Below are positions 13,333 through 64,000 of a DNA stretch of 64,000 nucleotides, one piece after another (the stretch's first letter is position 1; each line of letters starts with the position of its first letter). Position numbers and translations under genes: made by a program. This DNA comes from an uncultured Gammaproteobacteria bacterium (GTDB lineage Bacteria > Patescibacteriota > Patescibacteriia > Patescibacteriales > UBA12465). The notes beneath the pieces were generated by a model that saw only the letters and a list, made by a program, of their open reading frames with translations, was not told the DNA's origin and ran no database searches. The stretch covers positions 8,577 to 72,576 of the forward strand of contig CAZFUP010000001.1 in assembly GCA_964522055.1 (NCBI GenBank). The letters run 5' to 3'.

Positions 13333-14352
13333 ATGATAAATATTGAAAAAAATGTTAATTTACAAAAATTTAACACTTTAAGCATTCCTGTTTTAGCTAA
13401 GTTTTTTTGTTGTGTAAAAAATGAAGAAGAACTAAAAGAAGCTTTAGTTTGGGCAAAAACAAAGAAGAAAAAAATCTTTATTCTAGGTGGCGGTTCTAAT
13501 GTTTTATTTAGCAAAGATTTTCCAGGCTTGGTGATAAAAAACGAGATAAGAGGAATTAATTTAAAAAAATCTAAAGACAGAGTTGCTTTTGTTGAAGCCA
13601 TGTCTGGTGAAAACTGGACTAAATTGGTTGATTTTACCGTAAAAGCCAAATTATACGGTTTAGAAAACCTCTTCTTAATATACGGAACGGTTGGCGCTGC
13701 TCCTGTCCAAAATATCGGTGCTTATGGTGTTGAACTAAAAGACAGTTTTTTTTCTTTAAGGGCGCTTGATTTAAATTCTTTAAAAGAAAAAACATTTTTT
13801 TCTAAAGATTGTCGCTTTGCTTATCGCGATAGTGTTTTTAAAAATAAATATAAAGGACGATATTTTATTCTTTCAGTTACTTTTAAATTAAGTTACCGCA
13901 AACATTTTAATCTTAGTTACAAAGGGATATCTGAGGAGCTTATTAAACAAGGGGTAGGGAAACCGGAGCTTAGAGATTTAATAAAAGCAATAACATTAAT
14001 ACGGAACAGCAAGTTACCTAGTCCTGGTGCATTACCTAATGCCGGGTCATTCTTTAAAAATACGGAGGTTAGCAAGACGTGTTTTAATTCTTTAAAGAAA
14101 AAATATCCCGATATGCCTAGTTATGCTGGGGAAAGAGGAAAAATAAAGATTCCGACAGCTTGGTTAATAGAACAAGCTGGTTGGCGTGGGCGCAAGCTTG
14201 GTCCAGTATCTATGTTTGAAAAACAAGCTCTTATTATGGTAAATCATGGCGGAGCTACAGCTAAAGACGTTTTATCTTTAGCTAAAAAAGTAAAAGCGGT
14301 TGTAAAGAAGAAATTTGGGCTTGATATTTGTGAAGAGATTAATATAATATAA
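13333..14352 (+). CDS. murB: UDP-N-acetylenolpyruvoylglucosamine reductase
   Basis: FAD-binding ILGGGSNVLF motif and MurB C-terminal domain; dcw context. Confidence 0.8.
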   Translation: MINIEKNVNLQKFNTLSIPVLAKFFCCVKNEEELKEALVWAKTKKKKIFILGGGSNVLFSKDFPGLVIKNEIRGINLKKSKDRVAFVEAMSGENWTKLVDFTVKAKLYGLENLFLIYGTVGAAPVQNIGAYGVELKDSFFSLRALDLNSLKEKTFFSKDCRFAYRDSVFKNKYKGRYFILSVTFKLSYRKHFNLSYKGISEELIKQGVGKPELRDLIKAITLIRNSKLPSPGALPNAGSFFKNTEVSKTCFNSLKKKYPDMPSYAGERGKIKIPTAWLIEQAGWRGRKLGPVSMFEKQALIMVNHGGATAKDVLSLAKKVKAVVKKKFGLDICEEINII

Positions 14353-50115: not shown

Positions 50116-51921
50116 ATGGGTCAAGCTGAGGAGATAAAATCAAAATTGGATATTGTGGAAGTAATTCGTGAGTATATCCCGGTAAAAGCAGTTGGTGCTA
50201 ATTTTCAAGCACTTTGCCCTTTTCATAATGAAAAAACACCGTCTTTTGTTATTTCTCCAGATAAGCAAATTTGGCATTGTTTTGGCTGTGGTCGTGGTGG
50301 CGATGTTTTTTCTTTTATAATGGAAAAAGAAGGTTTAAGTTTTTCTGAAGCTTTACGTCTTTTAGCTCCTAAAGCTGGAGTAGTCTTAAAATATGAAAAC
50401 AAGGAAGAGCACTCTAAGCGCAATCGATTACTTGATGTCTTGGAATTAGCCGGAAAATATTATGCTCATGTTCTTAGCACTTCAAGCGGTGAAGCGGCTA
50501 GGCGGTATTTAAAAGAGAGACGATTAAAAGAGGAAATTATTAACACTTGGCAACTTGGCTATAGCCCTGAATCTTGGGATGGCTTATATAAATTTTTAAA
50601 AGCCAGACCACTACAGGGGAAGAAATATAGTGATGAGGAAATAGTGGCAGCGGGACTGGTGATAAAAAGAGATAATTCTGGTTTTTATGATAGATTCCGT
50701 GATCGCATTATGTTTCCTATTAAAGACGCAAACGGTAATCTTATTGCCTTTACCGCTCGAATTAATCCAGAAAAAGAAGCGACGGAAAAAGTGGGGAAAT
50801 ATATAAATAGTCCGCAGACAAGTGTTTATGATAAAAGTCGGGTGTTATTTGCCTTAGATAAGGCCAAAGAAGCAATTAGGAAGGAGAACTTAGCAATTGT
50901 CGTAGAAGGACAAATGGATGCCATTTCTTGCCATCAGAGTGGCTTTCAAAACGTAGTCGCCTCTTCAGGGACAGCTTTAACAACAGAACAAGTTTCTTTA
51001 TTGAAAAGATTTAGTAATAATGTCGCTTTAGCTTTTGATATGGATCAGGCCGGACAGATGGCTGCTGATAGAGGGATAAAAGAAGTTTTAGCGCAAGAGT
51101 TAAATTTAAAAATAATAGTTTTGCCAAACGGGAAAGATCCAGATGAATGTTTAAAGAATGGTCCAGATGATTTCAGGCAGGCGATTATAAATGCTAAGCC
51201 AGTGCTGGAGTATTATTTTGAAAAAATAAGTGCGCCTTTAGATTTATCTAATTTAGATAATAAGATAAAAGTACGTAGCCAAATGTTTAACATGATAGAT
51301 TTGGTTAAGAATCAAACAGAACAGGGCTATTGGTTAAAAAAAGTTAGTGAAGAATTAGATTTTGCCGAAGAAGATGTTCGTAGCGAATTTAAATCTTGGA
51401 AAGGAAAACAGAGACCGGAATTTGTTAAGAAAGAGGCAGGGGAAGAGAAAAAAACTGAGCTTCGTTTACGTGAAGATAGATTAGCGGAATTAGCCCTTTC
51501 TTTGGTGGTGAAGTTTCCGGAATTATTTTCTTATACTCTGGCTAATTTAGAGCCGGAGCACATGAGCGGAGAAGAAAATCTTAGGTTTTACAAGCATCTT
51601 ATAATCTATTATAATAAGACTAATAGTTTTTCGTATGACGATTTTCAATCCTATCTAAAAGAACAAGTAGGGGGTTTAGAAAAGTTATTAGATAAGCTGG
51701 TTCTTTTGGGTGAAAAAGATTTCTATGATCTTGATGTTGACAGAGCAAAAATTGAATTGATAAAGATAGTAATTGAGTTAAAGAAGTTTAATTTTCAGAA
51801 AAAGATAAAGAATTTAGAAAAAGAAATTACTCGTGCTGAAAAGGAAGGGCGAGCTGAAGAGATAGAAACATTAATGCAAGAGTTAAAAAATTTAATGGAT
51901 GAGATCAAAAGATTAATTTAG
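50116..51921 (+). CDS. dnaG: DNA primase
   Basis: CHC2 zinc finger [46 protein letters not shown]. Confidence 0.9.
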
Positions 51922-51928
51922 CTATATT

Positions 51929-53308
51929 ATGGCAAAGCAAATAAAACAAAAGAAAAAAGTAATGTCTAAGAAAGTTAGCGTTAAGAAGGCTCCGCTTAAA
52001 AAAACGGTTAACCAGAAGAAAGTTAGCGCTAAAAAAACAAAGGCAAATAAAACAGCTTTAAAGAAGCCGTTGGTTAAGGTTAAGAAAAAAACGGAGAAAA
52101 TAAGCCCTAAGAAGGTGATAAAGAAAAAGAAAGAAGTAAAGCAAAAAAAGAAAGCAACTATAAAATTAGTAAAGATAAAAAAAAGCGAAGTTAAGGAAGT
52201 TATAAAACCAACAGAAGAAGCCATGAAGAGGCTTGTAGATAAGGGACGACTGAGAGGTTTTATTACCGAAACAGAACTGTTATATCTTTTTCCAGAAATA
52301 GAAGAGTATGTTTATGAATACGATGTTTTTTTAGGAGAACTACAAAAGAACGGAATTAGAATCGCTGAGGACTCTGGTCGTATTTTAGATATGATAGAGA
52401 AAAAGACCAATGAAGAAGCAACTAGTGGCAAAACTCTCGCTCAGCAAAATGCCATGAATATAGATTTGTCTAAATTAAGCGCCGATTCTATCCAAATGTA
52501 TTTAAAGGAAATAGGGAAGGTTCCGCTTCTAAGTGGGGAAGAAGAGGTCGAGCTGGCTAAAAGAAAAGAAAAAGGGGACAGAGAGGCGGAAAAGAAAATT
52601 ATTGAAGCTAACTTGCGCTTAGTTGTTTCAATCGCCAAGAAATTTGCTGGCGCTAAAGGCATGAGTCTTTTAGATTTAATTCAAGAGGGTAATATCGGCT
52701 TGTTTAGAGCGGTTGAAAAATTTGAATATAGAAAAGGTTTTAAATTTTCAACCTATGCTACTTGGTGGATACGACAAGCAATTACTCGGGCCTTAGCCGA
52801 TCAGTCCAGAACTATTCGTATTCCGGTTCATATGGTGGAAACTATTAATAAATTTCAGCAAATACAACGTAATCTTATTCAAGAATTAGGCCGAGAACCG
52901 TTAGCTGAAGAGATAGCTGCTGAAATGGGAGAAGAGATTGATAAGGTAAGATATATAATGAAAATTTCTCAGGATACTATATCTCTTGAAACAACAATAG
53001 GTGATGATGAAGAAGATTCAACACTAGAGGATTTTATCGAAGATGTAAAAAATGTTACCCCAGATCATGCAGCTGCTTTGCAGCTTCTACGTGATTATGT
53101 AAAAAATATTGTAGCTCAACTATCACCTCGTGAGCAGAAAATTCTAGAAATGAGATTTGGCTTGGTAGATGGTGTTGCTCATACTTTAGAAGAGGTTGGC
53201 CAAGAATTTGAAGTTACCCGTGAACGTATTCGTCAGATTGAATCTAAAGCTCTGGAGAAAATTAGAAAACTTAAAGGACTTGAGAAGTTAAGAGATTTTG
53301 CCGGATAA
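51929..53308 (+). CDS. rpoD: RNA polymerase sigma factor RpoD (sigma-70) with ~100-aa lysine-rich basic N-terminal region in place of acidic region 1.1
   Basis: Region 2 [40 protein letters not shown], region 4 HTH; N-terminus [29 protein letters not shown]... Confidence 0.9.
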
Positions 53309-53314
53309 TTTTAT

Positions 53315-53788
53315 ATGGATAAAGCCAAGCAAGTAGGAATAAGTTTCGGACTTACCTCAGCTGTAATAACGACTCTTGGATTAATGGTTGGACTTGATGC
53401 TAGCACGGGTTCAAAAGAAGCTGTGATAGCCGGAATATTAACAATTGCTATAGCAGATGCTTTTTCTGACTCTTTAGGCGTTCATTTAGCTAAAGAATCA
53501 GAAGGGAATTTTCATTCTAGACAAGTTTGGCAGGCGACATTTTCTACCTTTTTTTATAAGTTAGTATTTGCCCTAACTTTTTTAATTCCTGCTATTTTTC
53601 TTAAATCGCCTTGGTCGCTTTATGTAGCAATCGCTTGGGGAACACTCATTTTAACAGTTTTAAATATAAATATCGCTAAAAGAAATCATGAGAAACCAGT
53701 TAAGGTTATAGCTGAACATTTATTAATAGCCGCTGCAGTTGTTCTAATTAGTTATTTAGCAGGTAGGTCTATTTCTAGATTATTTTAA
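53315..53788 (+). CDS. Hypothetical small membrane protein (possibly VIT1/CCC1-like)
   Basis: 157 aa, 4-5 hydrophobic helices; weak resemblance only. Confidence 0.35.
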   Translation: MDKAKQVGISFGLTSAVITTLGLMVGLDASTGSKEAVIAGILTIAIADAFSDSLGVHLAKESEGNFHSRQVWQATFSTFFYKLVFALTFLIPAIFLKSPWSLYVAIAWGTLILTVLNINIAKRNHEKPVKVIAEHLLIAAAVVLISYLAGRSISRLF

Positions 53789-53874: not shown

Positions 53875-53949
53875 TCCCGGGTAGCGCAGCGGTAGCGCAG
53901 TTGGCTGTTAACCAATTGGTCGTCGGTTCGAATCCGACCCCGGGAGCCA
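53875..53949 (+). tRNA. tRNA-Asn (anticodon GTT), CCA encoded
   Basis: Hand-folded cloverleaf: acceptor TCCCGGG/CCCGGGA, D-arm GCGC-AGCGGTA-GCGC, anticodon arm GTTGG-CTGTTAA-CCAAT (anticodon GTT at 53907-53909), T-arm GTCGG-TTCGAAT-CCGAC, discriminator G, CCA. Confidence 0.9.
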
Positions 53950-54007
53950 ACCTAGTACGTCTTTCGAGAGACCCATTCTCGTCAAAAGACGTAGTAAACT
54001 GCAAAAA

Positions 54008-54037
54008 ACATCTCAAATTGAGGTGTTTTTTGTTTTT
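54008..54037 (+). terminator. Rho-independent terminator downstream of tRNA-Asn
   Basis: ACATCTC-aaatt-GAGGTGT 7-bp stem (one G.U) followed by TTTTTGTTTTT. Confidence 0.7.
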
Positions 54038-54107
54038 GACTTTTTGGCTAAAAAATGAGAATATTAATAATATATAAAGTTTTGATAAATAAAAAATAAA
54101 CTCAGCT

Positions 54108-56231
54108 ATGGCTTATAACGGTAGAAAATTGAATAAATATATTTGGATTCCGAAATCAAAAACTGACCTAAGGGAATATAGGGAATTTTTGAAAATTTGT
54201 GATTCTCTTGAAAAAAGAGATGGGTTTTTTAATGATAAAACTATCGGGGAAGAAATGGTTAGTTTAAGGGCTATTGTGGATAGAGATAACACTGCTTCGT
54301 CATATATAGAAAAATATAAAGATAAAAAAGTTGGAGATCAGTCTTATGTGAGTAATGCCAGAATGCTTATAAGAATTTTTAGGTGGTTAGGCTTTATAAC
54401 TAAAGATTATAATCAGGAGATAGATGGAAAGTATTATTTGACTCCGTATGGAAAAGAATTACTTGAATTTCGTGGGCCGATCAAGGAAGAAGAAATTGAT
54501 ATTTTCAGAAATGCTTTTGCTAATATGAGATTTTTTAGTCAAAACGATGATATTAATTATAGAAATTATTATTTTAAGCAAAGGCCATTTTTTAATTTGA
54601 TAAGATTTTTAGATATATTAAATTATGCTTCTCATTACGAGCTAGCTCTTTCAGCACTAGTTTTAAAAGATGAATCTGCGACCGAGATCAAAGAAAAAAT
54701 TGATAAAATAATAAAATGTAGAAAGGAAAAAAATATAAGATGGTTAATGAATGAATATGATTTGGATTGCGATAATAAAAGTCGAGTAACTGGAATATAT
54801 GATGGCCCAAAAGTTTTATTGTCGTTTGCTAAGCAAATGGGGTTAGCAGAAGAGATGGATTTAAGAAGCCCTCAAAACAAAGAAGAATACAAATTGTATA
54901 AAAGGATGTATAGTGACAGTGGTCAGATTTCCGAAAAAAGTGTTAAAAAAATAACAAGAATTACTAAGCTTGGTAAAGATTTTGTTAAAAAATTTGGTGA
55001 TAAAAAATTATTATGGTTCAATGATCTGAATGTGGCAGAAGTAGCTCTTCTATTGCTCGTGATGAAGAATGAAAGCGCTTCAACTTTAGATCTAAAAGAA
55101 CTTGGATTAGAACCAGACAGTTTAAACGATATTTTTATTGTTGAGAATAACAAGGTAGGTGTTGTTGAATCTTTTAATTTTGATTTATATAGAGATGTTC
55201 CTTATGAGGATAGAAAAAAAGTTATTTCATTGATTAACAAAGTTGATAAAAATTTTTTCTCTCATTCATTAAAACATAATACTGATAGCAATAAACAAAT
55301 ATATATTCAAAACGCTGATTACATGGAATGTAAAGAATGCTATTTTGGAAAATGTGCTTTCTATAGAAATAAAATAGACAGTTTTGGAGGTAGTGACAGA
55401 TTTTCAAGCAGAGTGTGCCCAGAAAATTTACTAAATTTTGACGATAAAGGTTATTTGCATATTGATAGCGAAGAATGTGTTGGTTGTGGCCTATGTTTTA
55501 TTTCTTGCCCTTTTGCCGCTATATCAATAGATGAAAATAGCAAATGTTTTAAAAATGAATCAACTAATTCTGGGGAGCTGATTGATATAAGAAAAAAAGA
55601 GGAGTTGACTATTTTATCAGAAAATAAAGCTGAACAAAAAAACAATATATCTTTAAGTGATATACCAACTTTAGTCAATAATTTTATTGATAAGATAAAT
55701 AGACCTGGTAAGAAATGGGATAAGGATCGTTGCTATACCTATGTAAGAAATGTTTTTAGAATATTTGATGTAGATGCTGTGTATTCAGGTTCTGGCGGAA
55801 TGAAAACAAGGTCGGATGTATCCATAATTTCTCCTTTTGTAGCTGTCAGTGAGGTTAAAAGTCCAGCAGAGTCGCCTATAAATTTAAAAGCTGTAAGACA
55901 GGCTGTTGACGCTGCTGTTCAGTCTGAAACGAAACTAACTATGGCAATCGGTTTAACAACACATAGTGGAGCCGTGGATCAGGAAACAAAATATTTTAAA
56001 ACCATGGGAATAGGTGTTTTATTGTTGGAAATAAAATATATTTCTTTTATTTCTTTTCTGAGTTTATTTGTTAAATTTACTCCGGATTCATTAAAAAGAT
56101 TAATATCTAATAATAGAGGGCTTTTTGGAAAAAATGAATTAAAAAAATACCTATTTGATGAAATAGATATTTTAAACAGTGATATAAATAAAGAGGAACT
56201 AATAGCAGTAATTGATAAATTGTTTATTTAA
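54108..56231 (+). CDS. Candidate restriction endonuclease-like protein with embedded 2x[4Fe-4S] ferredoxin-like cysteine motif and C-terminal PD-(D/E)xK-like motif
   Basis: Eight Cys around aa 430-480: CKECYFGKC...VCP...CVGCGLCFISCP (canonical CxxCxxCxxxCP). D-x13-E-V-K (SDVSIISPFVAVSEVKS) near aa 590. Convergent with, and overlapping by 8 nt, two DNA methyltransferase genes. Confidence 0.4.
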   Translation: MAYNGRKLNKYIWIPKSKTDLREYREFLKICDSLEKRDGFFNDKTIGEEMVSLRAIVDRDNTASSYIEKYKDKKVGDQSYVSNARMLIRIFRWLGFITKDYNQEIDGKYYLTPYGKELLEFRGPIKEEEIDIFRNAFANMRFFSQNDDINYRNYYFKQRPFFNLIRFLDILNYASHYELALSALVLKDESATEIKEKIDKIIKCRKEKNIRWLMNEYDLDCDNKSRVTGIYDGPKVLLSFAKQMGLAEEMDLRSPQNKEEYKLYKRMYSDSGQISEKSVKKITRITKLGKDFVKKFGDKKLLWFNDLNVAEVALLLLVMKNESASTLDLKELGLEPDSLNDIFIVENNKVGVVESFNFDLYRDVPYEDRKKVISLINKVDKNFFSHSLKHNTDSNKQIYIQNADYMECKECYFGKCAFYRNKIDSFGGSDRFSSRVCPENLLNFDDKGYLHIDSEECVGCGLCFISCPFAAISIDENSKCFKNESTNSGELIDIRKKEELTILSENKAEQKNNISLSDIPTLVNNFIDKINRPGKKWDKDRCYTYVRNVFRIFDVDAVYSGSGGMKTRSDVSIISPFVAVSEVKSPAESPINLKAVRQAVDAAVQSETKLTMAIGLTTHSGAVDQETKYFKTMGIGVLLLEIKYISFISFLSLFVKFTPDSLKRLISNNRGLFGKNELKKYLFDEIDILNSDINKEELIAVIDKLFI

Positions 56232-56994
56232 TAGCAGACAACCTTTTTTTTGCAATTTTAATATAATCATTATTGAGTTCGAATCCAATATAGTTTCTAT
56301 TATTTATTTTAGCGCTCACTAATTCACTCCCAGATCCAGCAAATGGAACAAGTATTAAATCATTTTCATTTGAAAAATGTTTTATTATTTTGTCGCATAT
56401 GGCTATTGGTTTCTGTGTTGGGTGCTCCACTTTCTCTTTTTCAAAATTTTTTCCTGCTAGTGTTGGTATTTGCCAAACATCACCGCCATGTTTTCCTAAT
56501 GGGTTAGGCATCCATGATTTTCCATTTTTAGTTATTTTATATTTAATCCTATCAGCGCTTTTGTAAGGCTCTCTTATTGGGTGGTATGTATATTTTTTTG
56601 ATTTTGTAAACCAAAGTAATGGTTCATAGTTTGCTGATGGTTTTTTGGTATAACCTGACCAGCCATTTTCATAAAACCATATAAACATTCTTCCATATTT
56701 TAACCCTAGCTCATATAAATAGCATTGTGTGTAACAAATATAATCATGAATACCATATACAAATATAGATCCATTGTCTTTTAAAACTCTTTTTGATTCT
56801 TTTAGCCATTCTTTGCTCCATTCGAACCAATCTTCAACGTTTTCCCATTTATCACTATTGTTGCCAAAATCTTTGTTTAAATTATATGGTGGGTCAATAA
56901 TAATCAAATCTACCGAGTTATCAGGTAGATTTTTCATTAATTTAACACAATCTCCACTATATATTTTATTTTTTTGAATTTTTATCTTTTGCAT
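56224..56994 (-). CDS. DNA methyltransferase, beta-class amino-MTase (N6-adenine or N4-cytosine), DPPY type
   Basis: N-terminal IYSGDCVKLMKNLPDNSVDLIIIDPPYN (motif IV) and C-terminal HPTQKPIAICDKII...LVPFAGSGSE (motifs X/I). Confidence 0.85.
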   Translation of the reverse strand: MQKIKIQKNKIYSGDCVKLMKNLPDNSVDLIIIDPPYNLNKDFGNNSDKWENVEDWFEWSKEWLKESKRVLKDNGSIFVYGIHDYICYTQCYLYELGLKYGRMFIWFYENGWSGYTKKPSANYEPLLWFTKSKKYTYHPIREPYKSADRIKYKITKNGKSWMPNPLGKHGGDVWQIPTLAGKNFEKEKVEHPTQKPIAICDKIIKHFSNENDLILVPFAGSGSELVSAKINNRNYIGFELNNDYIKIAKKRLSAIK

Positions 56995-57880
56995 TTTGTA
57001 AAATCAATATGTATTGATGATGAATATTGGGAACATAAGCATATGGATATCCATATGGGTAAACCTTTTTTCTGCTTTGGTATAAAACAGTAATACCTTT
57101 TAGAACGAAATTTCCCTTGGATTCTATATAATTGGATAGATCAGTATGAAAAGGGTATAATCTCTCTTTGTGTCTAAGGTCACTGACTACGATTGCAATG
57201 TATTTTTTATTTTTTAATATTCTGTGGCAATCGTTAAAAAAATCTCCGAGAACTTCTATGAATTTATTATAGTTTTTAATTGTGGAAATATCATTTTTGT
57301 TTCCATCGCTGTATTTTGTATCCAATTTATTATTAAGCCTTTCTTGTTTTGCTTTATGATCAATTTTTTCTAGTATGTTCCAATATGGAGGACTTGTAAC
57401 AATAAAATCGAAAAAATCATTTTCAATTTTTTTAATTTCTTTTATTGAATCGCCGTTGATAATTTTCTGCTCTGGATATTTATTTGGGTAATCAACTATT
57501 TCTTTTTTTAATCTTTTTTTGGATAGATCGGAATATTTTTTCATCAGTTCTATCCCATATCCAATTCTACCGCTAAGAGCAGTTGCTTTTAGGGTTGACC
57601 CTACTCCCAAAAACGGATCAAGAACTTTATCCTGTTTTTTTGTAAAAAAATTTATCAGCCTAGAAACATCCTGATAAGAATATGGTGCGGGGTGCATTCT
57701 TTCTATTTCGGTATCCTTATGTTTGGCCCCCAAACCTTTCTGTAGAAACACAGATATTGTTTCCGGTATCCATTCTTTCGAAGTTAAATCATTTAGTTTG
57801 TTTCTTTTATCGTAAATGCCCCTTTCGCCTTTATCAACCCCGTTTTTGCTTTTTTTTGTTGTTTTTTCTTCTTTTTTCAT
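56966..57880 (-). CDS. DNA methyltransferase (amino-MTase, SPPY type, probably N4-cytosine or N6-adenine; motif order X-I...IV)
   Basis: HPAPYSYQDVSRLINFF...VLDPFLGVGST (motifs X/I) followed by FDFIVTSPPYWN (motif IV); overlaps downstream MTase by 29 nt. Confidence 0.8.
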   Translation of the reverse strand: MKKEEKTTKKSKNGVDKGERGIYDKRNKLNDLTSKEWIPETISVFLQKGLGAKHKDTEIERMHPAPYSYQDVSRLINFFTKKQDKVLDPFLGVGSTLKATALSGRIGYGIELMKKYSDLSKKRLKKEIVDYPNKYPEQKIINGDSIKEIKKIENDFFDFIVTSPPYWNILEKIDHKAKQERLNNKLDTKYSDGNKNDISTIKNYNKFIEVLGDFFNDCHRILKNKKYIAIVVSDLRHKERLYPFHTDLSNYIESKGNFVLKGITVLYQSRKKVYPYGYPYAYVPNIHHQYILILQNAKDKNSKK

Positions 57881-57925
57881 ATTTATTATAATACCATAAA
57901 AATGGCAAAAGTCATATACCTAATA

Positions 57926-59245
57926 TTAAATAAAAATTTGCTTGTTTTTCATTGTTAATCTGCTTTGAAGATTGGAAAGCAAATCTCTTTTTTCTATAAT
58001 ACTGCCTTCTTTGAGAATATATTTGGCATAATTTCTCATATCTACATCTTTCTGCTTTTCAAAATCTTTAGACTCTGTTTTTAGAATACTTCTACTAAAT
58101 TTATAATATCGTTCAACTTCTTCTTTAAACTGTCCTTGTATGCCAAGGATATTTAGGTCAATTTTATCAATCAGGTGGGATAGTTGGATTATTAATTCTT
58201 CTTCTCTTAAATAACCCCCTTTACAATGTAGGTTCCTAGCTCTTGTGCATCCATAATAAACATATCTTCTAACTGAGCCATCGCTCAGTTTTTTAAATTT
58301 TTCGTCAGCTGTGATTCCAGATCCACAATGACCGCATTTAATTAATTTAGTGAAAGCAAACTCTTTACATTCGTGTCTCTCGATATTATCTCTATCCAAT
58401 CTCTCTCTGGCTTTTTGAAATAACACCTTAGTAATGATTGGATCTTGTTTGCCTTGATACCATTTATCACTACCTATGGGATATTCAAATTCTCCGCAGT
58501 AATATGGATCGGCCAGTATTCTATAAATCATACTAAGAGTAAGATTTTTATTATTTTTTGTTTTAAAATCTGTTTCATTTACTATCCATCTTAGCAGTTG
58601 TCTGCCACTCCAATTTTCATAGGCCACTTTCTCGAATAATTTTTTAATATATGGCGCCCTCTTTGGGTCTATAAAAACTTTTTTATCGCCTTTGTCAGCA
58701 TATTTGTCATGAATATATCCAAGGGGTGCTGGTCCTGGTCGCCAACCTTTTTCGCACTTTGCTCTTAGCCCTCGTTTAACATTTATGCCTTTGTGGTCGT
58801 TTTCGAGCTTGGCTTGAGATCCAAGAATCATTAGAAGAAACTTCTCGTTGGGGTTATTTGTAAACTTTTGGCCATGCGTTCTTATCTCTTGAAGTCTACC
58901 TTGATCCATTAAGTCCACTACAGCCCCTAAATCGCCCGCATTACGGCTTAAGCGGTCTGGTGCCAAGCAAAGTATCCCATTAAACATTCCAGTCCTTATA
59001 TCGGCCAGTAATTGGTTGTAGACGGGTCTTTGGCCAGAATCCTTGGCTGAATGACTTTCTCGTCTTATATCGGCTATCTCCATGTTTTCAGCCTTTGCCA
59101 TTTCCAGCATCTCTTTTATTTGAGAATCAATAGAAAGGGCTTGCTGTTCGTCTGATTCTGTTGATTTTCTTGCATATAGGCAATACTTGATGGGAATTAC
59201 CTCTTGAACCCTTGTAAAACCCACGGTTTGTTGTTGTGTTTCCAT
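57926..59245 (-). CDS. Large serine recombinase (resolvase-domain integrase/transposase-type)
   Basis: N-terminal resolvase catalytic domain YCLYARKSTESDEQQALSIDSQ (Ser nucleophile) and ...RLSRN; recombinase domain; C-terminal zinc ribbon CGHCGS...YYGCTRARNLHC. Confidence 0.85.
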   Translation of the reverse strand: METQQQTVGFTRVQEVIPIKYCLYARKSTESDEQQALSIDSQIKEMLEMAKAENMEIADIRRESHSAKDSGQRPVYNQLLADIRTGMFNGILCLAPDRLSRNAGDLGAVVDLMDQGRLQEIRTHGQKFTNNPNEKFLLMILGSQAKLENDHKGINVKRGLRAKCEKGWRPGPAPLGYIHDKYADKGDKKVFIDPKRAPYIKKLFEKVAYENWSGRQLLRWIVNETDFKTKNNKNLTLSMIYRILADPYYCGEFEYPIGSDKWYQGKQDPIITKVLFQKARERLDRDNIERHECKEFAFTKLIKCGHCGSGITADEKFKKLSDGSVRRYVYYGCTRARNLHCKGGYLREEELIIQLSHLIDKIDLNILGIQGQFKEEVERYYKFSRSILKTESKDFEKQKDVDMRNYAKYILKEGSIIEKRDLLSNLQSRLTMKNKQIFI

Positions 59246-59282
59246 ATTTTTACTAATTTTACTTAATTACAACAACATTAAT

Positions 59283-59650
59283 GACGCGACCCGCAAAGGT
59301 AGTCCAGGCCCCTGAAGTAGACAAACTGTTGGTAACTAAACTTTACTTTTATGCCTTTTTAAGCTATATTTTAAGTGCGAAACCACAATTGAATTTTCGA
59401 AAGACGTGCTTAAAAAGTACGGTCTCTTGTATATAGGAACGGGCACTCCGACCCATACAAGAGGCAGTCTTTCGGGACACCAATTGTGGTTTCGCAACCA
59501 GGTCGGGTGTCCGTTTTTGTTTTCGGGCATTTGACGTTTTATAAATCAAGTTAAGAGGGGGCATAACCTGCTGAGGCTGGTGGCCGTTCCTCCGGCCGAG
59601 CCGGACCGGAATCGGCCACCAGCCAACCTCGGGCAGGTTTGGCTATATGC
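59283..59650. ncRNA. Candidate structured non-coding RNA(s)/recombination-associated structured region (unclassified). Contains a ~120-nt extended hairpin (59376-59496) and a GC-rich (~65% GC) multi-helix element (59556-59645)
   Basis: Perfect 16-bp inverted repeat TGCGAAACCACAATTG (59376-59391)/CAATTGTGGTTTCGCA (59481-59496). Nested perfect IRs CGAAAGAC/GTCTTTCG and CTCTTGTAT/ATACAAGAG. 10-bp IR CTGGTGGCCG/CGGCCACCAG plus ACCTGC/GCAGGT. GC content far above the ~35% background. No ORF of note. Confidence 0.35.
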
Positions 59651-59710
59651 TGTTAATTAATCGCTTGGCACATTGACCTTTGTTCCGTGCTATTTTGAGA
59701 ATAGAGCAAT

Positions 59711-59740
59711 AAAAAAACACCAAAAAGAGAATTTTTGGTG
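59711..59740 (-). terminator. Rho-independent terminator (minus strand) for ORF 59813-60433
   Basis: On minus strand: CACCAAAAA-ttctc-TTTTTGGTG perfect 9-bp stem followed by TTTTTTT. Confidence 0.7.
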
Positions 59741-59812
59741 AATGTTTTGTGAAAGTATATATCAAAAAATCGCCCTTTTTGACCGATTTTCTAAGTTATT
59801 AACATTCACTGT

Positions 59813-60433
59813 TTATTTTGTTGATTTATTGAATTCTGGGCGGTATTTAAAAGGGATTGCTTTTGTTGGTGTTTTATAGTTATTTTGTGATTTTTGTATA
59901 AGACATAAAATATATTTAGATTCTTTAGCTATCCTTCCGTTAGTATCTTCAATTTCCTGCCTAAACACTCTGGAATCGATTTCATCTTTAGGTTTTTTGC
60001 CTAGATTTTTTATCCAACCATTGTAATCATGATATGTCTTAGCCCCATCTTGGTTATTATAGAAGAACCATATAATTAAGGCCCTTTGGCCATCAACCGG
60101 AATCTCGTCGTCTAAGTATTTGATAATTATTTGGCCGCTATTATCATTGCGTGTAATCACTAGTTTTTCTTTAGCCTTTTTTGTTTCTTGGTTTTCTGAT
60201 TCGTCATTTAGAAAATTTGATGTTGGATTTATAAGCCAAATGACCTTTCTGATTATATCGGAGTTTCTCATTCTGATAATTATTTTTTCTCGCCACCCTT
60301 GTTCTATTAACTTGAAGTATAAAAATCTGGCAAAAATGAAAAATAAAATAACTACCATTAGAAAAATAATGGTCATATTCCATATTGATTTAGTTGCCTC
60401 ATGAAGAGCTGAGGCGAATGCTGGGTCTGCCAT
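59813..60433 (-). CDS. Hypothetical membrane-anchored protein (single N-terminal TM helix plus ~165-aa soluble domain)
   Basis: IWNMTIIFLMVVILFFIFARFLYF hydrophobic segment near N-terminus; no recognisable motif; lies in the accessory island. Confidence 0.45.
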   Translation of the reverse strand: MADPAFASALHEATKSIWNMTIIFLMVVILFFIFARFLYFKLIEQGWREKIIIRMRNSDIIRKVIWLINPTSNFLNDESENQETKKAKEKLVITRNDNSGQIIIKYLDDEIPVDGQRALIIWFFYNNQDGAKTYHDYNGWIKNLGKKPKDEIDSRVFRQEIEDTNGRIAKESKYILCLIQKSQNNYKTPTKAIPFKYRPEFNKSTK

Positions 60434-60508
60434 ATTAAGTAAATATAAAACGTTATTTAGTTATTGTCAAAATCGAAAATGTCTTTTAATACTTAATGTT
60501 AATTTTTT

Positions 60509-60537
60509 TTGACTTTTTTGCTTAAAAATTGTAAGAT
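60509..60537 (+). promoter_or_regulatory. Candidate promoter for ORF 60550-61320
   Basis: TTGACT at 60509-60514, 17-nt spacer, TAAGAT at 60532-60537 preceded by TG. Confidence 0.3.
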
Positions 60538-60549
60538 TTAAGCAGATTT

Positions 60550-61320
60550 ATGAATTTATCTTTTAACGCTGCTTTGGCAGATAATTACACGAGCCAATCA
60601 CAAAAAATTAGAGTATTGACCGAAAGCTGGGTTGATAAAAATGCCTATTGCCCTAATTGTGGGCAGTTAAACGTAGATAAATACGGAAACAATAAACCGG
60701 TGGCCGATTTTTATTGTCCAAATTGCCATGAAGATTATGAATTAAAGAGTAAAAAAGATAGCGTTGGCGCAAAAATTGTTGACGGAGCTTATCGAACAAT
60801 GATTGAAAGATTAAATAGCAGTAATAACCCAAATTTCTTTTTATTAAATTATGATCTTGATGCTTTAGAGGTTTTAAATTTTTTAGTCATACCAAAACAT
60901 TTTTTTATTCCCGGAATCATTGAAAAAAGAAAACCGTTGGCAGAAACCGCCAGGCGAGCCGGTTGGATAGGCTGTAATATATTATTACACGGAATTCCGC
61001 AGTCCGGAAAAATATATTTTGTTAAAAATAAGATTGTTCAACCCAAGGAATTAGTTTTATCTGAATGGAAAAAGACTTTATTTTTAAGAGAAGAAAAAGA
61101 AGCTAGTGCAAAGGGTTGGTTGCTGGATATTATGAATTGCGTGGAAAAATTTAGAGGCAGAGAATTTTCGCTGGGCGAAGTTTATAAGTTTGAAGCCGGA
61201 TTGAGCAGGAAGTATCCTGATAACCGTCATATCAAAGATAAAATTCGTCAGCAGCTCCAATTCTTAAGAGATAAGAGGTATTTAAAATTTATAAATCGTG
61301 GAACCTATAAATTATTATAA
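60550..61320 (+). CDS. Zinc-ribbon-containing nuclease-like protein, candidate restriction endonuclease (possibly DpnI/Dam-replacing-family-like, methyl-directed)
   Basis: Two CPNC pairs (YCPNCGQ...FYCPNCHEDYELKSKK) with D-x10-E-L-K spacing reminiscent of PD-(D/E)xK; basic C-terminal region (RQQLQFLRDKRYLKF) compatible with a winged helix; located between defence-type genes. Confidence 0.4.
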   Translation: MNLSFNAALADNYTSQSQKIRVLTESWVDKNAYCPNCGQLNVDKYGNNKPVADFYCPNCHEDYELKSKKDSVGAKIVDGAYRTMIERLNSSNNPNFFLLNYDLDALEVLNFLVIPKHFFIPGIIEKRKPLAETARRAGWIGCNILLHGIPQSGKIYFVKNKIVQPKELVLSEWKKTLFLREEKEASAKGWLLDIMNCVEKFRGREFSLGEVYKFEAGLSRKYPDNRHIKDKIRQQLQFLRDKRYLKFINRGTYKLL

Positions 61321-61346
61321 TTTTTATACTGATTTAATAAAAAATT

Positions 61347-62711
61347 ATGAAACAAATAATAAATTACGATAAATTAATAGTCAATCCAGAAAACTATCGC
61401 TTTGATCCAGTGGATGGCCAGGAACAAGCAATAGATTTAATGATTGAAGAAAAGGGAGCGGAAATATTAAATATGGCGAAACATATCCTTGAAAAGGGCT
61501 TGGATCAGGCCAAGGATTTGAGGGTTTTAGAATTAAAAAATAAAGAGTATCTCGTTTTAGACGGCAATAGAAGAATTGTCGCAATCAAATGTCTTCATAA
61601 TCCGGAGTTAGTAAAAAATAAAAAATTACAAAATGCATTTAAATCACTTTTAAAGACTGGTAAGAAGCCAATATCAAAAATATTGTGTTTTGTGTATTTG
61701 AACGAAAAAGACGCGGCAGAATGGATTAAGTTAGACCACACCGGAAAAAACGATGGAGTTGGACAAGATTCTTGGGGTTCGCCTGAAAAAGAAAGATTTG
61801 GATATAAATTTGAAGGAACGATATCCCCGGCCATGCAAGCGGTTAATATCATAGAAAAAGAACTTGGCAAAAAAATTAATACTAAAAAATTAAAGATATC
61901 CACAGTAAATCGCATATTATCTAGCCCTGACGCTCGTTTATATGTAGGTGTGAATGTTGATAAAGGCAATTTAACTTTTACTTGTGATAAAAACGAGGCA
62001 ATTAAACGATTAGACACTTTGGTTGATAAGATTATTACAAGTAATGTTACTGTTGGCACTGTATATCACAAACCTCAAATAGTAGAGTTTGTTACAGATC
62101 TTTACGGCGCAAAACCTGCTACGTGTAAAAAGCCAACCCTTCCTTTTCCAAGTGTTAGTAATGTGTCTGTCGGTGGTAAGGCCGTACCAGGCACATTAGT
62201 GAAAAATGACTGGATTGATTATAAGGAATATACCGCATATAATGGACCTGAAAAAGTAAAGAAATTACTTAATGAAATGAGGTCATTAGACCCAAAACAA
62301 AATGCAAATATATTAATGCCAGCTTTGCGTGTTTTGTTGGAATTATGTTTATATGATAAATTAAGACAGACAGGACATATCGTAAAATTAGTAAATATTT
62401 ATAAATCTAATATAAAGAATGAAAATACTAATAGAGCTAAGAAGGGAGCGGCCTTAATTTCTGAAAAAAAGAATTGGACGCCAAGTTTTAGAGAAATGCT
62501 AAATTATATTGTCGAAGAAAATAGCGGTGTAATTAATGACCCGCAAGCGCGAGAAATTTTAGAAAAAAAGATTAAAAAGGAAGATAATTTTGTAAAAGGT
62601 CTTAACGATTTCATACATAATGTCCACGATATTCCTGCTAAAGACGATCCAGAAAAAACCTGGAGCGGATTCGGTCGATTACTTTTTGATATAATTAAAG
62701 ATATAAAATAG
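61347..62711 (+). CDS. ParB/Srx-fold (ParBc, ParB-like nuclease/NTPase domain) protein with uncharacterised C-terminal region
   Basis: N-terminal LIVNPENYRFDPV (PNPxQPR-like box) and RVLELKNKEYLVLDGNRRIVAIKCL (GERRxRA-like arginine finger) typical of the ParB N-terminal domain; no ParA partner nearby. Confidence 0.6.
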   Translation: MKQIINYDKLIVNPENYRFDPVDGQEQAIDLMIEEKGAEILNMAKHILEKGLDQAKDLRVLELKNKEYLVLDGNRRIVAIKCLHNPELVKNKKLQNAFKSLLKTGKKPISKILCFVYLNEKDAAEWIKLDHTGKNDGVGQDSWGSPEKERFGYKFEGTISPAMQAVNIIEKELGKKINTKKLKISTVNRILSSPDARLYVGVNVDKGNLTFTCDKNEAIKRLDTLVDKIITSNVTVGTVYHKPQIVEFVTDLYGAKPATCKKPTLPFPSVSNVSVGGKAVPGTLVKNDWIDYKEYTAYNGPEKVKKLLNEMRSLDPKQNANILMPALRVLLELCLYDKLRQTGHIVKLVNIYKSNIKNENTNRAKKGAALISEKKNWTPSFREMLNYIVEENSGVINDPQAREILEKKIKKEDNFVKGLNDFIHNVHDIPAKDDPEKTWSGFGRLLFDIIKDIK

Positions 62712-62720
62712 CAAATAAAT

Positions 62721-63590
62721 ATGTTTTTTTCCCCATTACGCTACCCTGGCGGTAAAAATAAACTAGCAAAATTTATTGCTATGATTTGTTTTGAAAATGA
62801 TATTAATGGACATTATATTGAGCCCTACGCCGGCGGAGCCGCAGTAGCTTTATATTTATTGATTAATGATAAAGTTTCTAAAATAACTATAAATGATAAA
62901 GATCGCTCAATTTATGCTTTTTGGTATTCTGTTTTAAATCATACAACTAAATTTTGTAATTCAATTAATAACACAGAGATAAATGTTAAAAATTGGAAAA
63001 AATTTAAGGAAGTTCAAAAAAATAAAGAAACTGCTGATTTATTTACTTTAGGTTTTTCAACATTTTTTCTTAATCGTACAAATGTTTCCGGCATTATCGA
63101 CGGCGGTATTATTGGTGGGCTAAAACAAGTGGGCAATTACAAGATTAATTGCAGATTTAATAAAAAAACTTTAATTGAAAGAATTAAAAAAATCGCTTCT
63201 TGTAAAGATAAAATAGAATTATACAATTTAGATGCCTTGGATTTAATTAAAAGAATTAATAAAGAATGCAGAAGTTCAAATAAAATATTTTATTTTGACC
63301 CTCCGTATTATTTAAAAGGCGAATCGCTATATTTAAATTGTTATAAGCCAGACGACCATAAACAAGTTAGTGAAGAAATAATAAAGATTAAAAATGCGAA
63401 ATGGATAGTTTCTTATGACAATACGACGGAGATAAAAAAGTTATATAGTAATTGTCAAAAAATTGAATATTCATTTTTTCATACAGCACGCGAAGCAAAA
63501 ATAGGGAAAGAAATTTTATTTTTTTGTGATAAGCTTAAAGTTCCGGTCGTACCAGACCCAACAAGACTTGTCGAAAATGATTATGAATAA
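62721..63590 (+). CDS. DNA adenine methyltransferase, Dam/D12 class (N6-adenine)
   Basis: N-terminal FSPLRYPGGKNKLAKFI (D12-class AdoMet motif), catalytic FYFDPPYY. Confidence 0.8.
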   Translation: MFFSPLRYPGGKNKLAKFIAMICFENDINGHYIEPYAGGAAVALYLLINDKVSKITINDKDRSIYAFWYSVLNHTTKFCNSINNTEINVKNWKKFKEVQKNKETADLFTLGFSTFFLNRTNVSGIIDGGIIGGLKQVGNYKINCRFNKKTLIERIKKIASCKDKIELYNLDALDLIKRINKECRSSNKIFYFDPPYYLKGESLYLNCYKPDDHKQVSEEIIKIKNAKWIVSYDNTTEIKKLYSNCQKIEYSFFHTAREAKIGKEILFFCDKLKVPVVPDPTRLVENDYE

Positions 63591-64000
63591 TTTTAATAAA
63601 GAAGAATTTGAAAAATTAAAAAACAAAGTAGACGCCGAATATAAAAGTATCGGCAGTATTTATAGTCCAGCATTAAAATCTAATATCGCGTTTAATTCTA
63701 ATGGTTTTCATCATTTACGTTATGATAATACCAGGGCTGAAAGAAGTAAGCCGGCTCAGTTAAATAAATTTAGATTTTTTGGCGATGCAATAAATTCAAT
63801 TAAAATTTCAACGACTATTCAAGAGTATCGACGAGTTAAAAATTTCATATGCGGTAAAGAATCTGTTGTAGAGTGGTTTGCTTTTTGGTCTATAACTAGT
63901 TTTATAAAACAGATTAGAATTAGAGTTATAGTTAGAAGAGTGGGCGGAGAAGACGGACAATTTCATTTTTGGAGTGTTATGCCATTTTGGTCTCTTCAAC
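63583..64000 (+). CDS. Hypothetical protein, 3' partial (runs off window end; start overlaps Dam stop, ATGAATAA)
   Basis: ATG at 63583; open frame to the window end, translating MNNFNKEEFEKLKNKVDAEYKSIGSIYSPALKSNIAFNSNGFHHLRYDNTRAERSKPAQL...; not listed in the ORF track because no stop lies within the window. Confidence 0.35.
   Translation, partial: MNNFNKEEFEKLKNKVDAEYKSIGSIYSPALKSNIAFNSNGFHHLRYDNTRAERSKPAQLNKFRFFGDAINSIKISTTIQEYRRVKNFICGKESVVEWFAFWSITSFIKQIRIRVIVRRVGGEDGQFHFWSVMPFWSLQ

Follow-up and report, generated by a model that had tools for sequence, protein, structure and literature searches.

A tRNA-Asn-linked island with a large serine recombinase and a LOOT-like RNA gene in a patescibacterial genome

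The locus behind tRNA-Asn

The window considered here, that is, the whole 64-kb stretch of contig CAZFUP010000001.1 that was analysed (64,000 nucleotides), ends in 10 kb of accessory DNA that lie directly behind a tRNA-Asn gene and harbor a gene for a large serine recombinase (LSR) next to a structured RNA. The rpoD relatives place the window in the Patescibacteria, near the Falkowbacteria metagenome-assembled genome L001 (87% identity); loci are labelled L### and homologous proteins P#### throughout, structure models were made with AF2 and fold searches with Foldseek. The tRNA-Asn(GTT) gene (53875-53949, plus strand; Rfam tRNA model, 71.5 bits) is the sole tRNA that ARAGORN and Rfam place in the window, and it is regarded as the integration target and as the proximal junction, on the attL side. 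On its 5' side are found dnaG (50116-51921), rpoD (51929-53308) and a gene for a VIT1-like membrane protein (53315-53788), and from its 3' end (53949) to the end of the window the genes are accessory throughout. A first-pass annotation, made from the sequence alone, had described at this point a switch to defence and mobile-element genes, and all the genes that it listed are present. The 3.9 kb of cargo between tRNA-Asn and the LSR (slot 1) hold a type IIS restriction-modification (R-M) system, and the region past the RNA gene (slot 2) holds the open reading frame ORF5, a DpnI-family nuclease and the two genes of a PD-Lambda-5 system. GC content is 28-31% in the cargo, 36-39% around the recombinase and about 33% elsewhere, a difference so mild that base composition alone would not prove an island; it is the comparison with related sequences that does. 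These data make it likely that the visible 10 kb are an integrative genomic island in the 3' end of tRNA-Asn, with the LSR as its integrase and with cargo stacked or swapped around a module formed by the LSR and the RNA gene.

The sequence that follows the tRNA (53950-54044, plus strand) constitutes an element-side junction module. It comprises a stem-loop (53956-53993, plus strand), which had already been noticed in the first-pass annotation and is real, the trailer motif TTTCGAGAGACCC inside it (53962-53974, plus strand), and a terminator found by a terminator scan (54001-54033, plus strand). This trailer shares 88% identity with the one behind tRNA-Asn in locus L081 and 82% with the one behind tRNA-Gln in L093, so that it belongs to the element and not to the tRNA locus. 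In L002, the closest relative with sequence behind its tRNA-Asn, this gene is 97.6% identical to that of the window, divergence begins right after the discriminator base, and a plain terminator follows, without the trailer motif of the island. This gene is consistent with a candidate unoccupied site, on a short contig and among different surrounding genes: the L002 contig ends 150 nucleotides past tRNA-Asn and its gene neighbourhood differs. The L001 contig ends inside tRNA-Asn, so that the contigs of the two closest relatives both break at this gene or within 150 nucleotides after it, as population-level variation or repeats at tRNA-Asn would cause in metagenome assemblies.

The large serine recombinase

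The LSR gene (57926-59245, minus strand) encodes a protein of 439 amino acids, which is the presumed integrase. It harbors the three domains of a large serine recombinase, namely PF00239 (Resolvase, 1.3e-19), PF07508 (Recombinase, 4e-11) and PF13408 (Zn_ribbon_recom, 4e-08), all of them above the Pfam cut-offs, and a Y-x-R-x-S catalytic motif (Y24 A25 R26 K27 S28) that does not vary among 17 homologues with identities as low as 63%. Judged by these domains and by the invariant motif, the enzyme looks intact. Its best NCBIfam match is CcrB (3.4e-32), with 111.8 bits against a cut-off of 900, and the second best is XisF; on this score it is not a Ccr orthologue. Identity to the best 120 listed homologues ranges from 63 to 100%. 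No second recombinase was found among the island ORFs by Pfam and NCBIfam, nor any tmRNA in the window.

Between the LSR and the RNA gene lies a divergent promoter region (59246-59376), identified by promoter scan, which contains the LSR leader and the RNA-gene promoter and is conserved with L081, L258 and L261. An inverted repeat, TGTTGTTGTG / ACAACAACA (59229-59238 and 59269-59277), brackets the LSR start codon and the ribosome-binding region and is kept in L081; it is likely to form a hairpin for translational control. At the other end of the gene, L258 (11313-11498) and L261 (2387-2572) have in common a conserved ORF of 61 amino acids on the opposite strand, overlapping the LSR 3' end, which is absent from the window. 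A role of its product as a directionality factor or regulator is possible.

Association of the recombinase family with tRNA genes

Loci with homologous LSRs were collected from metagenome contigs, assemblies and IMG/VR, and the removal of duplicates left 150 distinct LSR genes. Of the 83 informative loci, 64 have a tRNA gene at most 7 kb away from the LSR 3' end, and in all of these (64/64) it is on the opposite strand, so that the two genes are convergent; the remaining loci of the 150 are too short to judge. On the LSR 5' side, a tRNA within 7 kb is found in only 2 of 71 loci. The linked tRNAs are of nine types: Ser (35), Gln (12), Asp (6), Asn (4), Arg and Glu (2 each), and Met, Lys and Trp (1 each). 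The distance between LSR and tRNA goes from 95 nucleotides to 6.9 kb, with a median of 2.1 kb, and in ten cases it is below 250 nucleotides, which defines a minimal layout of tRNA, junction and LSR, with optional cargo in between.

The tRNA ends themselves carry a common mark. The motif T(A/T)TCG(A/G)N(1-3)AGACC(C/G) is present 13-22 nucleotides past the tRNA end in 35 of the 47 distinct LSR-linked trailers, and it follows other tRNAs of the same loci in 1 case out of 22, this one resembling a second junction. The cargo of slot 1, as seen across 43 loci, includes type II, IIG and III R-M systems, Shedu, DUF4238 and others.

Sister islands and their boundaries

The closest comparison is offered by L081, where the LSR is again found just past dnaG, rpoD, one further gene and tRNA-Asn. 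Its LSR, P0006, is 96% identical to that of the window at the amino acid level and 90.5% at the nucleotide level, including 125 nucleotides upstream, in the face of housekeeping genes that are far more divergent between the same two sequences (rpoD, 70% amino acid and 77% nucleotide identity; dnaG, 72-73% nucleotide identity). The cargo of L081 is a different one: next to the tRNA there is a type III R-M system accompanied by a C-protein-like helix-turn-helix protein, and on the other side a ParB-methyltransferase, another methyltransferase, and a Hachiman-like HamA with a helicase. The near-identical LSRs P0004 (L258) and P0003 (L261) are accompanied by two further cargo sets, which makes four islands with LSRs 96-100% identical in amino acids (90-97% in nucleotides) and four different slot-1 cargos. 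LSRs with 96-98% protein identity to that of the window thus occur, each with a cargo of its own, in genomes whose rpoD is only about 70% identical. The view of the first-pass annotation that the region was acquired at the 3' flank of tRNA-Asn is supported by this comparison, as the same LSR (90-97% nucleotide identity) lies past tRNA-Asn elsewhere, with other cargo and with housekeeping genes at 72-77%.

The limits of the homology delineate what is kept. L261 shares with the window only 57928-59552, at 96.7% identity over 1625 nucleotides, and has different genes on both sides; L081 and L258 match the window over 57928-59374, at 90.5-90.7%, and in addition in the tRNA trailer. Homology of L081 and L261 to the window breaks at the LSR stop codon, and that of L261 ends also 25 nucleotides past the U-run of the RNA. 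From this pattern of sharing it follows that the conserved unit, the integration module (57928-59552), is made up of the LSR gene with its leader and of the RNA gene next to it. An alternative account starts from these same edges: the locus would be a recombination hot spot and not self-mobile, with homologous recombination at conserved anchors (tRNA plus trailer, LSR and RNA) replacing the cargo, and with an LSR whose role is another one or has been lost. The sharp ends of homology with L081 and L261 at 57928, 59370-59374 and 59552 are what exchange at anchors would produce, and the window has no boundary repeat, just as most loci have no second junction copy within 10 kb on either side. What such an account does not provide is the site-specific movement required by an LSR family and a trailer motif that are found at nine tRNA species; an LSR identity so far above that of the housekeeping genes in the same genomes also stands against it, and so do the displaced pseudo-tRNA ends and the attP-like site described below. 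As a full explanation it is therefore considered unlikely, and exchange of this kind probably acts on top of integration, the two models being compatible.

Boundary repeats are found in the sister islands. L081 has, 14 kb from its tRNA, a displaced and decayed copy of the tRNA T-arm and acceptor followed by the motif and a terminator, and L149 has a 48-nucleotide repeat at 13 kb. The direct repeat anticipated in the first-pass annotation is thus present in a sister island and missing inside the window, where no second junction copy occurs up to 64000; its placement of the right-hand boundary past the window is upheld. In L164 (6600-14360), four junctions of tRNA-Ser 3' end plus motif delimit cassettes of 2-3 kb, one of them holding the LSR, in an arrangement that would correspond to a tandem, integron- or SCC-like array. 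A further observation comes from L192, a 56-kb IMG/VR contig without tRNA gene, in which a pseudo-tRNA 3' end plus motif (14038-14081) lies 2.7 kb from the LSR; this site is a candidate attP of a non-integrated element.

Long direct repeats over a tRNA 3' end (L081, L149) are the classical signature of tyrosine integrases at tRNA genes (PMC4383910), and they give some weight to the idea that another integrase, of the tyrosine type and encoded past the window or acting in trans, is responsible for integration, the LSR being cargo that serves inversion, resolution or an XisF-like developmental excision. The position of the LSR in mid-island and the rank of XisF as second-best NCBIfam match would also fit. 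Against this, none of the genes called across the entire 14-kb island of L081, or in the other loci with gene tables, encodes a tyrosine integrase, the convergent geometry (64/64) and the ten gaps below 250 nucleotides tie the LSR to the junction, and no long inverted repeats flank any segment of the window. A second integrase is therefore regarded as very improbable.

A proposed model for integration and cargo exchange

The proposed model has as its core the 1.6-kb integration module (57928-59552), with a CcrB-like LSR and a divergent LOOT-type RNA, and a junction module on the tRNA side. The LSR would join a site on the element to the chromosomal tRNA gene, the element site containing a tRNA 3'-end copy with a TATCGRNAGACC-type motif behind it. 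Integration would regenerate the tRNA, whose former 3' end would be displaced to the distal side of the island, and repeated integrations, together with exchange between conserved modules, would swap and stack the cargo. Catalysis of integration and excision by the LSR, the location of the crossover within this region and the replacement of cargo are what we infer from the comparisons given above.

Sixty-eight homologous LSRs are present on IMG/VR contigs, for which 'viral' is the label given by IMG/VR, and the original description of PD-Lambda-5 is that of a compacted system carried by prophages (PMC9519451). Both facts would be expected of a decayed prophage that had integrated at the tRNA and was left with its integrase and defence (moron) genes. 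Many of these IMG/VR contigs end at a tRNA, as the predicted island borders do; Pfam, PADLOC and NCBIfam searches of the nine island proteins, in which PHROGs was not run, gave no phage structural, packaging or lysis family, and the precomputed Pfam tables of the sister islands contain no such families either. A prophage origin is accordingly held to be extremely improbable.

Several observations weigh against integration by the LSR at the tRNA. Nineteen informative loci, with at least 7 kb of sequence on the LSR 3' side, have no tRNA. No true empty site of the same species was found; the motif-free tRNA-Asn of L002 lies in a different neighbourhood, and the contigs of L001 and L002 stop at the tRNA or just after it. 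Between 54.1 and 64.0 kb no displaced tRNA-Asn 3' fragment (GGTTCGAATCCGACCCCGGGAGCCA-like) or other boundary repeat was found, the far end of the island being beyond view, and the LSR lies in the middle of the visible island and not at its edge. No evidence of excision, of a circular form or of a directionality factor was found. For a serine integrase an overlap of 2 bp is sufficient, and the repeats of 45-100 nucleotides in L081 and L149 are typical of tyrosine-integrase islands. Finally, non-defence genes are also found in slot 1 across the 43 loci, so that the term 'defence-rich' is a qualitative one. The rival accounts are nevertheless less likely than integration by the LSR, because of the strict geometry at nine tRNA types, the conservation of the LSR beyond that of the housekeeping genes, and the displaced tRNA ends that occur without a tyrosine integrase.

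The structured RNA beside the recombinase

The region between the LSR and ORF5 (59246-59812) is a stretch of 567 nucleotides without ORFs and with a marked tendency to fold, reaching -172.7 kcal/mol (z = -8.5 against shuffles) on the plus strand and -150.9 kcal/mol (z = -6.2) on the minus strand; for 59377-59530 the fold has a z of -8.15. A promoter scan finds TTTACT-17-TATATT (59342-59370, plus strand) upstream of a LOOT-like structured small RNA, here called type A (59377-59527, plus strand), which is made up of an outer helix and an inner hairpin, the latter paired through its loop with the 3' tail, and of a U-run. The predicted transcript is of about 150 nucleotides, is oriented away from the LSR and ends in the U-run. 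Type A homologues in L099, L086, L118 and L261 show compensatory changes, and the arms of the outer helix covary.

In L081 the same position is occupied by an RNA that matches the Rfam family LOOT (RF03000) with 69.5 bits, the gathering score being 46.4, and LOOT RNAs above this threshold (57-72 bits) are found in L081, L110, L155, L131 and L158. The RNA of the window and the LOOT RNA of L081 share position, orientation and promoter, and have in common a hairpin with an ACGG..CGACC loop and a loop-pairing 3' tail before the U-run. The former does not have the GCCUAAAC...CAUGGC helix nor the two GAAA-capped hairpins, and a long outer helix encloses the core instead. Type A and type B RNAs are connected by nhmmer, and in L261, L258 and L081 the types are swapped at one place.

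The association of LOOT with the LSR extends beyond these islands. A covariance model of our own, constructed from nine LOOT RNAs including their 3' tails, finds such RNAs in 31 of 86 LSR loci from metagenomes or assemblies, several of these RNAs coming from duplicates of a single island. Among viral LSR loci it finds them in 19 of 68, and in 15 LSR-free control loci (about 256 kb) in none. Thirty-four of these RNAs could be mapped in position: 16 are at most 700 nucleotides upstream of the LSR and divergent from it, seven are directly 3' of it on the same strand, and 11 are elsewhere in the island. In an alignment of 32 LOOT sequences, 95% of the cells are paired and 45 of the 50 pairs covary, with changes on both sides, values that no shuffle attains. 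The tail, immediately ahead of the U-run, pairs with the long hairpin's loop in a helix of 14 bp; this pseudoknot lies outside the 121-position Rfam model, and the transcribed strand is fixed by the large number of U-G pairs in it. A caveat is that the model used to fit the alignment already held this helix. The long hairpin, which was not part of the fitted model, has 85% of its cells paired and nine of its ten pairs covarying.

That LOOT and LOOT-like RNAs are working parts of a serine-recombinase integration module is a tentative and rather doubtful proposal. Their role could be, for example, to set the directionality or timing of recombination, with or instead of a protein factor, or to stabilise the excised circle. 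Two points on the RNA of the window weigh against the integration model as a whole: the Rfam LOOT model gives no match in the window at E <= 1, or in 59250-59720 at E <= 10, for which reason the RNA of the window is not filed as a LOOT member, and type A is known from five sequences only, counting that of the window and the 96.7%-identical one of L261.

More specific ideas on the RNA were considered and set aside. For a guide in the manner of bridge RNAs, the longest match between a LOOT RNA and its own tRNA or att region has a mean of 7.5 nucleotides, against 7.2 +/- 1.1 for mismatched pairs, and the 11-nucleotide match of the window RNA to its tRNA/att region (TCGAAAGACGT) equals the maximum among mismatched pairs. 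As guide-like pairing finds no support, any role of the RNA would be regulatory or structural and not one of target reading. Nor is there support for an antisense action on the LSR leader, the duplex being of -57.0 kcal/mol with the own leader and of -56.6 +/- 10 kcal/mol in cross combinations. The 3' tail was discarded as a homologue of the tRNA trailer motif, which would have put the crossover inside the RNA gene, since tails vary independently of the motifs of their own loci, and the type A loop (TCCGACCC) was discarded as a decayed tRNA-Asn fragment, since it is also found at tRNA-Gln and tRNA-Ser islands.

Downstream of the RNA, three of the sister islands have a small gene for a transmembrane protein on the same strand (L261, 341-757; L081, 9264-9662; L258, 9269-9661), for which the RNA could be a leader in some elements. 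In the window this place is taken by a near-perfect GC-rich hairpin of 73 nucleotides and 71% GC (59566-59638), 14 nucleotides past the conserved block of LSR and RNA. It is the sole 60-nucleotide stretch of the window with at least 60% GC, and no relatives of it were found in the fetched loci or in IMG/VR. The Rfam search of the non-coding region of the window yielded only the tRNA and spurious matches of miRNA models on this hairpin. A bidirectional terminator-like hairpin (59718-59740), found by terminator scan, closes ORF5.

Cargo genes

ORF1 (54108-56231, plus strand) encodes a restriction endonuclease that is type IIS-like and into which a 2x[4Fe-4S] ferredoxin domain is inserted. The insert is of about 80 residues (approximately 400-480), lies between the recognition and the cleavage parts and contains the Fer4 Pfam matches (residues 435-473); it is predicted to bind two 4Fe-4S clusters. 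The family comprises about 40 proteins of 700-745 amino acids in which D570, E582 and K584 are invariant and eight cysteines are conserved. The AF2 model (pLDDT 88.7) matches N.BspD6I and FokI in fold over its full length (E about 4e-7, prob 1.0). Behind it are two N6/N4 DNA methyltransferases on the opposite strand: M1 (56224-56994, minus strand; PF01555, 4.8e-54; PADLOC MTase_II, 3.2e-63), and M2 (56966-57880, minus strand; PF01555, 3.1e-22 in two stretches; PADLOC MTase_II, 4.1e-31), which has a permuted motif order. Homologues of ORF1 with 45% and 33% identity, in unrelated contexts, have the same layout of a nuclease gene converging on two methyltransferase genes, one of them preceded by a C-protein, so that the nuclease and two adjoining N6/N4 methyltransferases are kept in three unrelated contexts. 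The fold match, the conserved residues and this layout identify ORF1 as a type IIS-like enzyme and M1 and M2 as its methylases, and two methyltransferases are as would be expected for the two strands of an asymmetric site. We know of no precedent for a ferredoxin-inserted enzyme of the FokI/BspD6I kind, no search of REBASE or of the literature having been aimed at one.

A cargo promoter module, TTGACT-N18-AATATT (54036-54065, plus strand), was found by promoter scan and is predicted to drive ORF1. A second copy (60509-60538, plus strand), with six mismatches in 30, stands before the DpnI-family gene; the 30-mer occurs twice in the 64-kb window at up to nine mismatches, and for this reason it was rejected as a generic promoter of the organism. 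As a repeat of 30-42 nucleotides it is the sole one to which the search for boundary repeats inside the window led. Elsewhere, in 3.3 Mb of loci, it is present in the L093 family, after the tRNA-Gln junction, and weaker matches occur in L102 and L138, with seven mismatches each. The recurrence of this module suggests that the block of DpnI and PD-Lambda-5 may once have been adjacent to the junction.

ORF5 (59813-60433, minus strand) encodes 206 amino acids, with an N-terminal transmembrane helix, and has no match in Pfam, PADLOC or NCBIfam. Its family is rare, with 15 cluster representatives in 1.84 billion proteins. In the AF2 model (pLDDT 75.8) the C-terminal domain resembles an OmpR/ToxR-like winged helix, as judged from Foldseek matches to the DNA-binding domains of SaeR, ArlR, NsrR, ToxR, CadC and PhoB (prob 0.97-1.0), whose E-values are weak (at least 1.5e-2) and which are consistent with each other.

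The next gene (60550-61320, plus strand) encodes a DpnI-family methyl-directed (type IIM) nuclease, matched over its full length by PF06044, the catalytic domain (3.5e-82, 274.9 bits), by PF17726, the C-terminal winged helix (4.5e-30, 104.1 bits), and by the PADLOC model mREase_II (2.3e-116). It is followed by PD-Lambda-5 A (61347-62711, plus strand; PADLOC PD-Lambda-5_A, 5.8e-78), which has no Pfam or PDB sequence match, and, 9 nucleotides apart and in this A-B order, by PD-Lambda-5 B (62721-63590, plus strand; PADLOC PD-Lambda-5_B, 1.8e-117; PF02086, 7.6e-19), a D12/Dam-class adenine methyltransferase. DpnI cuts methylated GATC, and the gene of this family lies here upstream of that of a Dam-class methylase; PD-Lambda-5 B, M1 and M2 must not make G(m6A)TC if they are to coexist with it. 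PD-Lambda-5 has been described as a compacted R-M plus abortive infection system borne by prophages, and that of Escherichia coli is phage-protective and needs an mrr-deleted host (Vassallo et al. 2022, PMC9519451).

The last gene, ORF9 (63577-64000, plus strand), overlaps the end of PD-Lambda-5 B by 14 nucleotides and is represented in the window by the 5' 141 codons of a 153-amino acid protein. Its family is spread throughout the Patescibacteria, with proteins of 150-160 amino acids, and none of its 144 homologues has a Pfam domain. One homologue with 53% identity follows a NUDIX gene in a glycosyltransferase cluster, unrelated to defence, so that a function of ORF9 as third PD-Lambda-5 gene is unsupported; it may or may not belong to the island.

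These assignments modify the first reading of the cargo. The protein described as a zinc-ribbon nuclease-like one is present and is a nuclease, now assigned with confidence to DpnI, and the ParB fold ascribed to PD-Lambda-5 A could not be recovered by Pfam or PDB sequence search. Several members had been said to have no confident family, which remains true of ORF9 and is corrected for most of the others. The region had further been held to be the likeliest place for an undescribed defence system, an expectation that finds no support, as the defence genes are of known kinds (type IIS R-M, DpnI-type IIM and PD-Lambda-5). The unusual part is the integration module, with the tRNA targeting of its LSR family and its structured RNA.

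Comparison with known systems

The closest analogues of the island are SCCmec and the ssrA islands of Dehalococcoides. As in SCCmec, the LSR stands between two variable regions and a conserved gene would receive the element at its 3' end; among the NCBIfam families it is CcrB that scores best. SCC elements have short direct repeats at their junctions, are commonly found as composite tandem arrays and frequently carry R-M genes as cargo. The island differs from SCCmec in the low score of its LSR (112 bits against the CcrB cut-off of 900), its single recombinase gene, its tRNA targets in place of rlmH (orfX), and the presence of a structured RNA.

In the ssrA islands of Dehalococcoides, the CcrB-like DsiB is encoded on the reverse strand next to attL, islands occur in tandem, with repeats of 20 bp, and the module includes a pseudo-tRNA (McMurdie et al. 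2011, PMC3146451). Both systems have a CcrB-like LSR in reverse orientation near the attL of a stable-RNA gene 3' end (convergent in 64/64 loci of the present family), 3'-end direct repeats that mark the island ends (in the present family, those of sister islands), tandem accretion with some islands lacking a recombinase, and a structured, tRNA-like RNA together with ParB-domain and methylase genes in or near the module (PMC3146451). In contrast to them, the targets here are ordinary tRNAs of at least nine amino-acid types and not ssrA, there is no small recombinase of the DsiA type, the RNA is LOOT or LOOT-like and not a pseudo-tRNA-Gly, the cargo is defence genes and not reductive dehalogenases, and the hosts are Patescibacteria.

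The islands in tRNA genes known from Islander and TIGER share with the present one an intact tRNA at one end with its 3' end restored, an integrase aboard, and the displaced fragment seen in L081 and L149, and differ in that their integrase is a tyrosine and not a serine enzyme. According to the Islander paper of 2014, targeting of tRNA genes was not known for serine integrases (PMC4383910). Literature searches on serine integrases at tRNA genes in bacteria of the Candidate Phyla Radiation (CPR) gave nothing specific. The small resolvase-like integrase of the Ralstonia phage phiRSM reportedly uses the 3' end of a tRNA-Ser. Small serine recombinases, for their part, have lately been used as markers of defence genes (PMC13552941).

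Among the defence systems, the ORF1 module would resemble the type IIS enzymes FokI and BspD6I in the modelled full-length fold, the C-terminal PD-ExK site and the two separate methyltransferases, and is unlike them in its ferredoxin-like insert with eight conserved cysteines. The PD-Lambda-5 proteins are adjacent in the A-B order and the DpnI is of full length with both domains, as in the described systems; unlike these, the two systems are directly side by side, in an island of Patescibacteria. As to the RNA, LOOT is not discussed in the main text of Weinberg et al. 2017 and is mentioned only by way of example, in the Rfam 14 paper and in one on covariation methods; the literature search retrieved no paper that ties it to tRNA-linked islands or to any recombinase. 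Both the concept of such an island and the defence systems are known, and what appears to be undescribed in the searchable literature is the tRNA-targeting LSR family and its link to LOOT.

Implications

If the LSR is the integrase, it stands for a large family of tRNA-gene-targeting serine integrases that is easy to recognise, and tools that assume that no serine integrase targets tRNA genes may miss such islands. Compact serine integrases of about 440 amino acids with short tRNA-like targets may be of interest to genome engineers, and restriction enzymology gains a small curiosity in the FokI-like nuclease with its ferredoxin domain. For LOOT (RF03000), an orphan RNA known only from metagenomes, these loci provide a first genomic context, and its association with this LSR in about a third of the loci makes its function experimentally approachable. 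Should the part proposed for the RNA be true, the serine integrase would work in a system that includes an RNA, in a widespread family specialised on the tRNA genes of CPR bacteria. In these genome-reduced Patescibacteria, defence systems may be traded by means of conserved integration modules, whose cargo slots turn over faster than the LSR itself.

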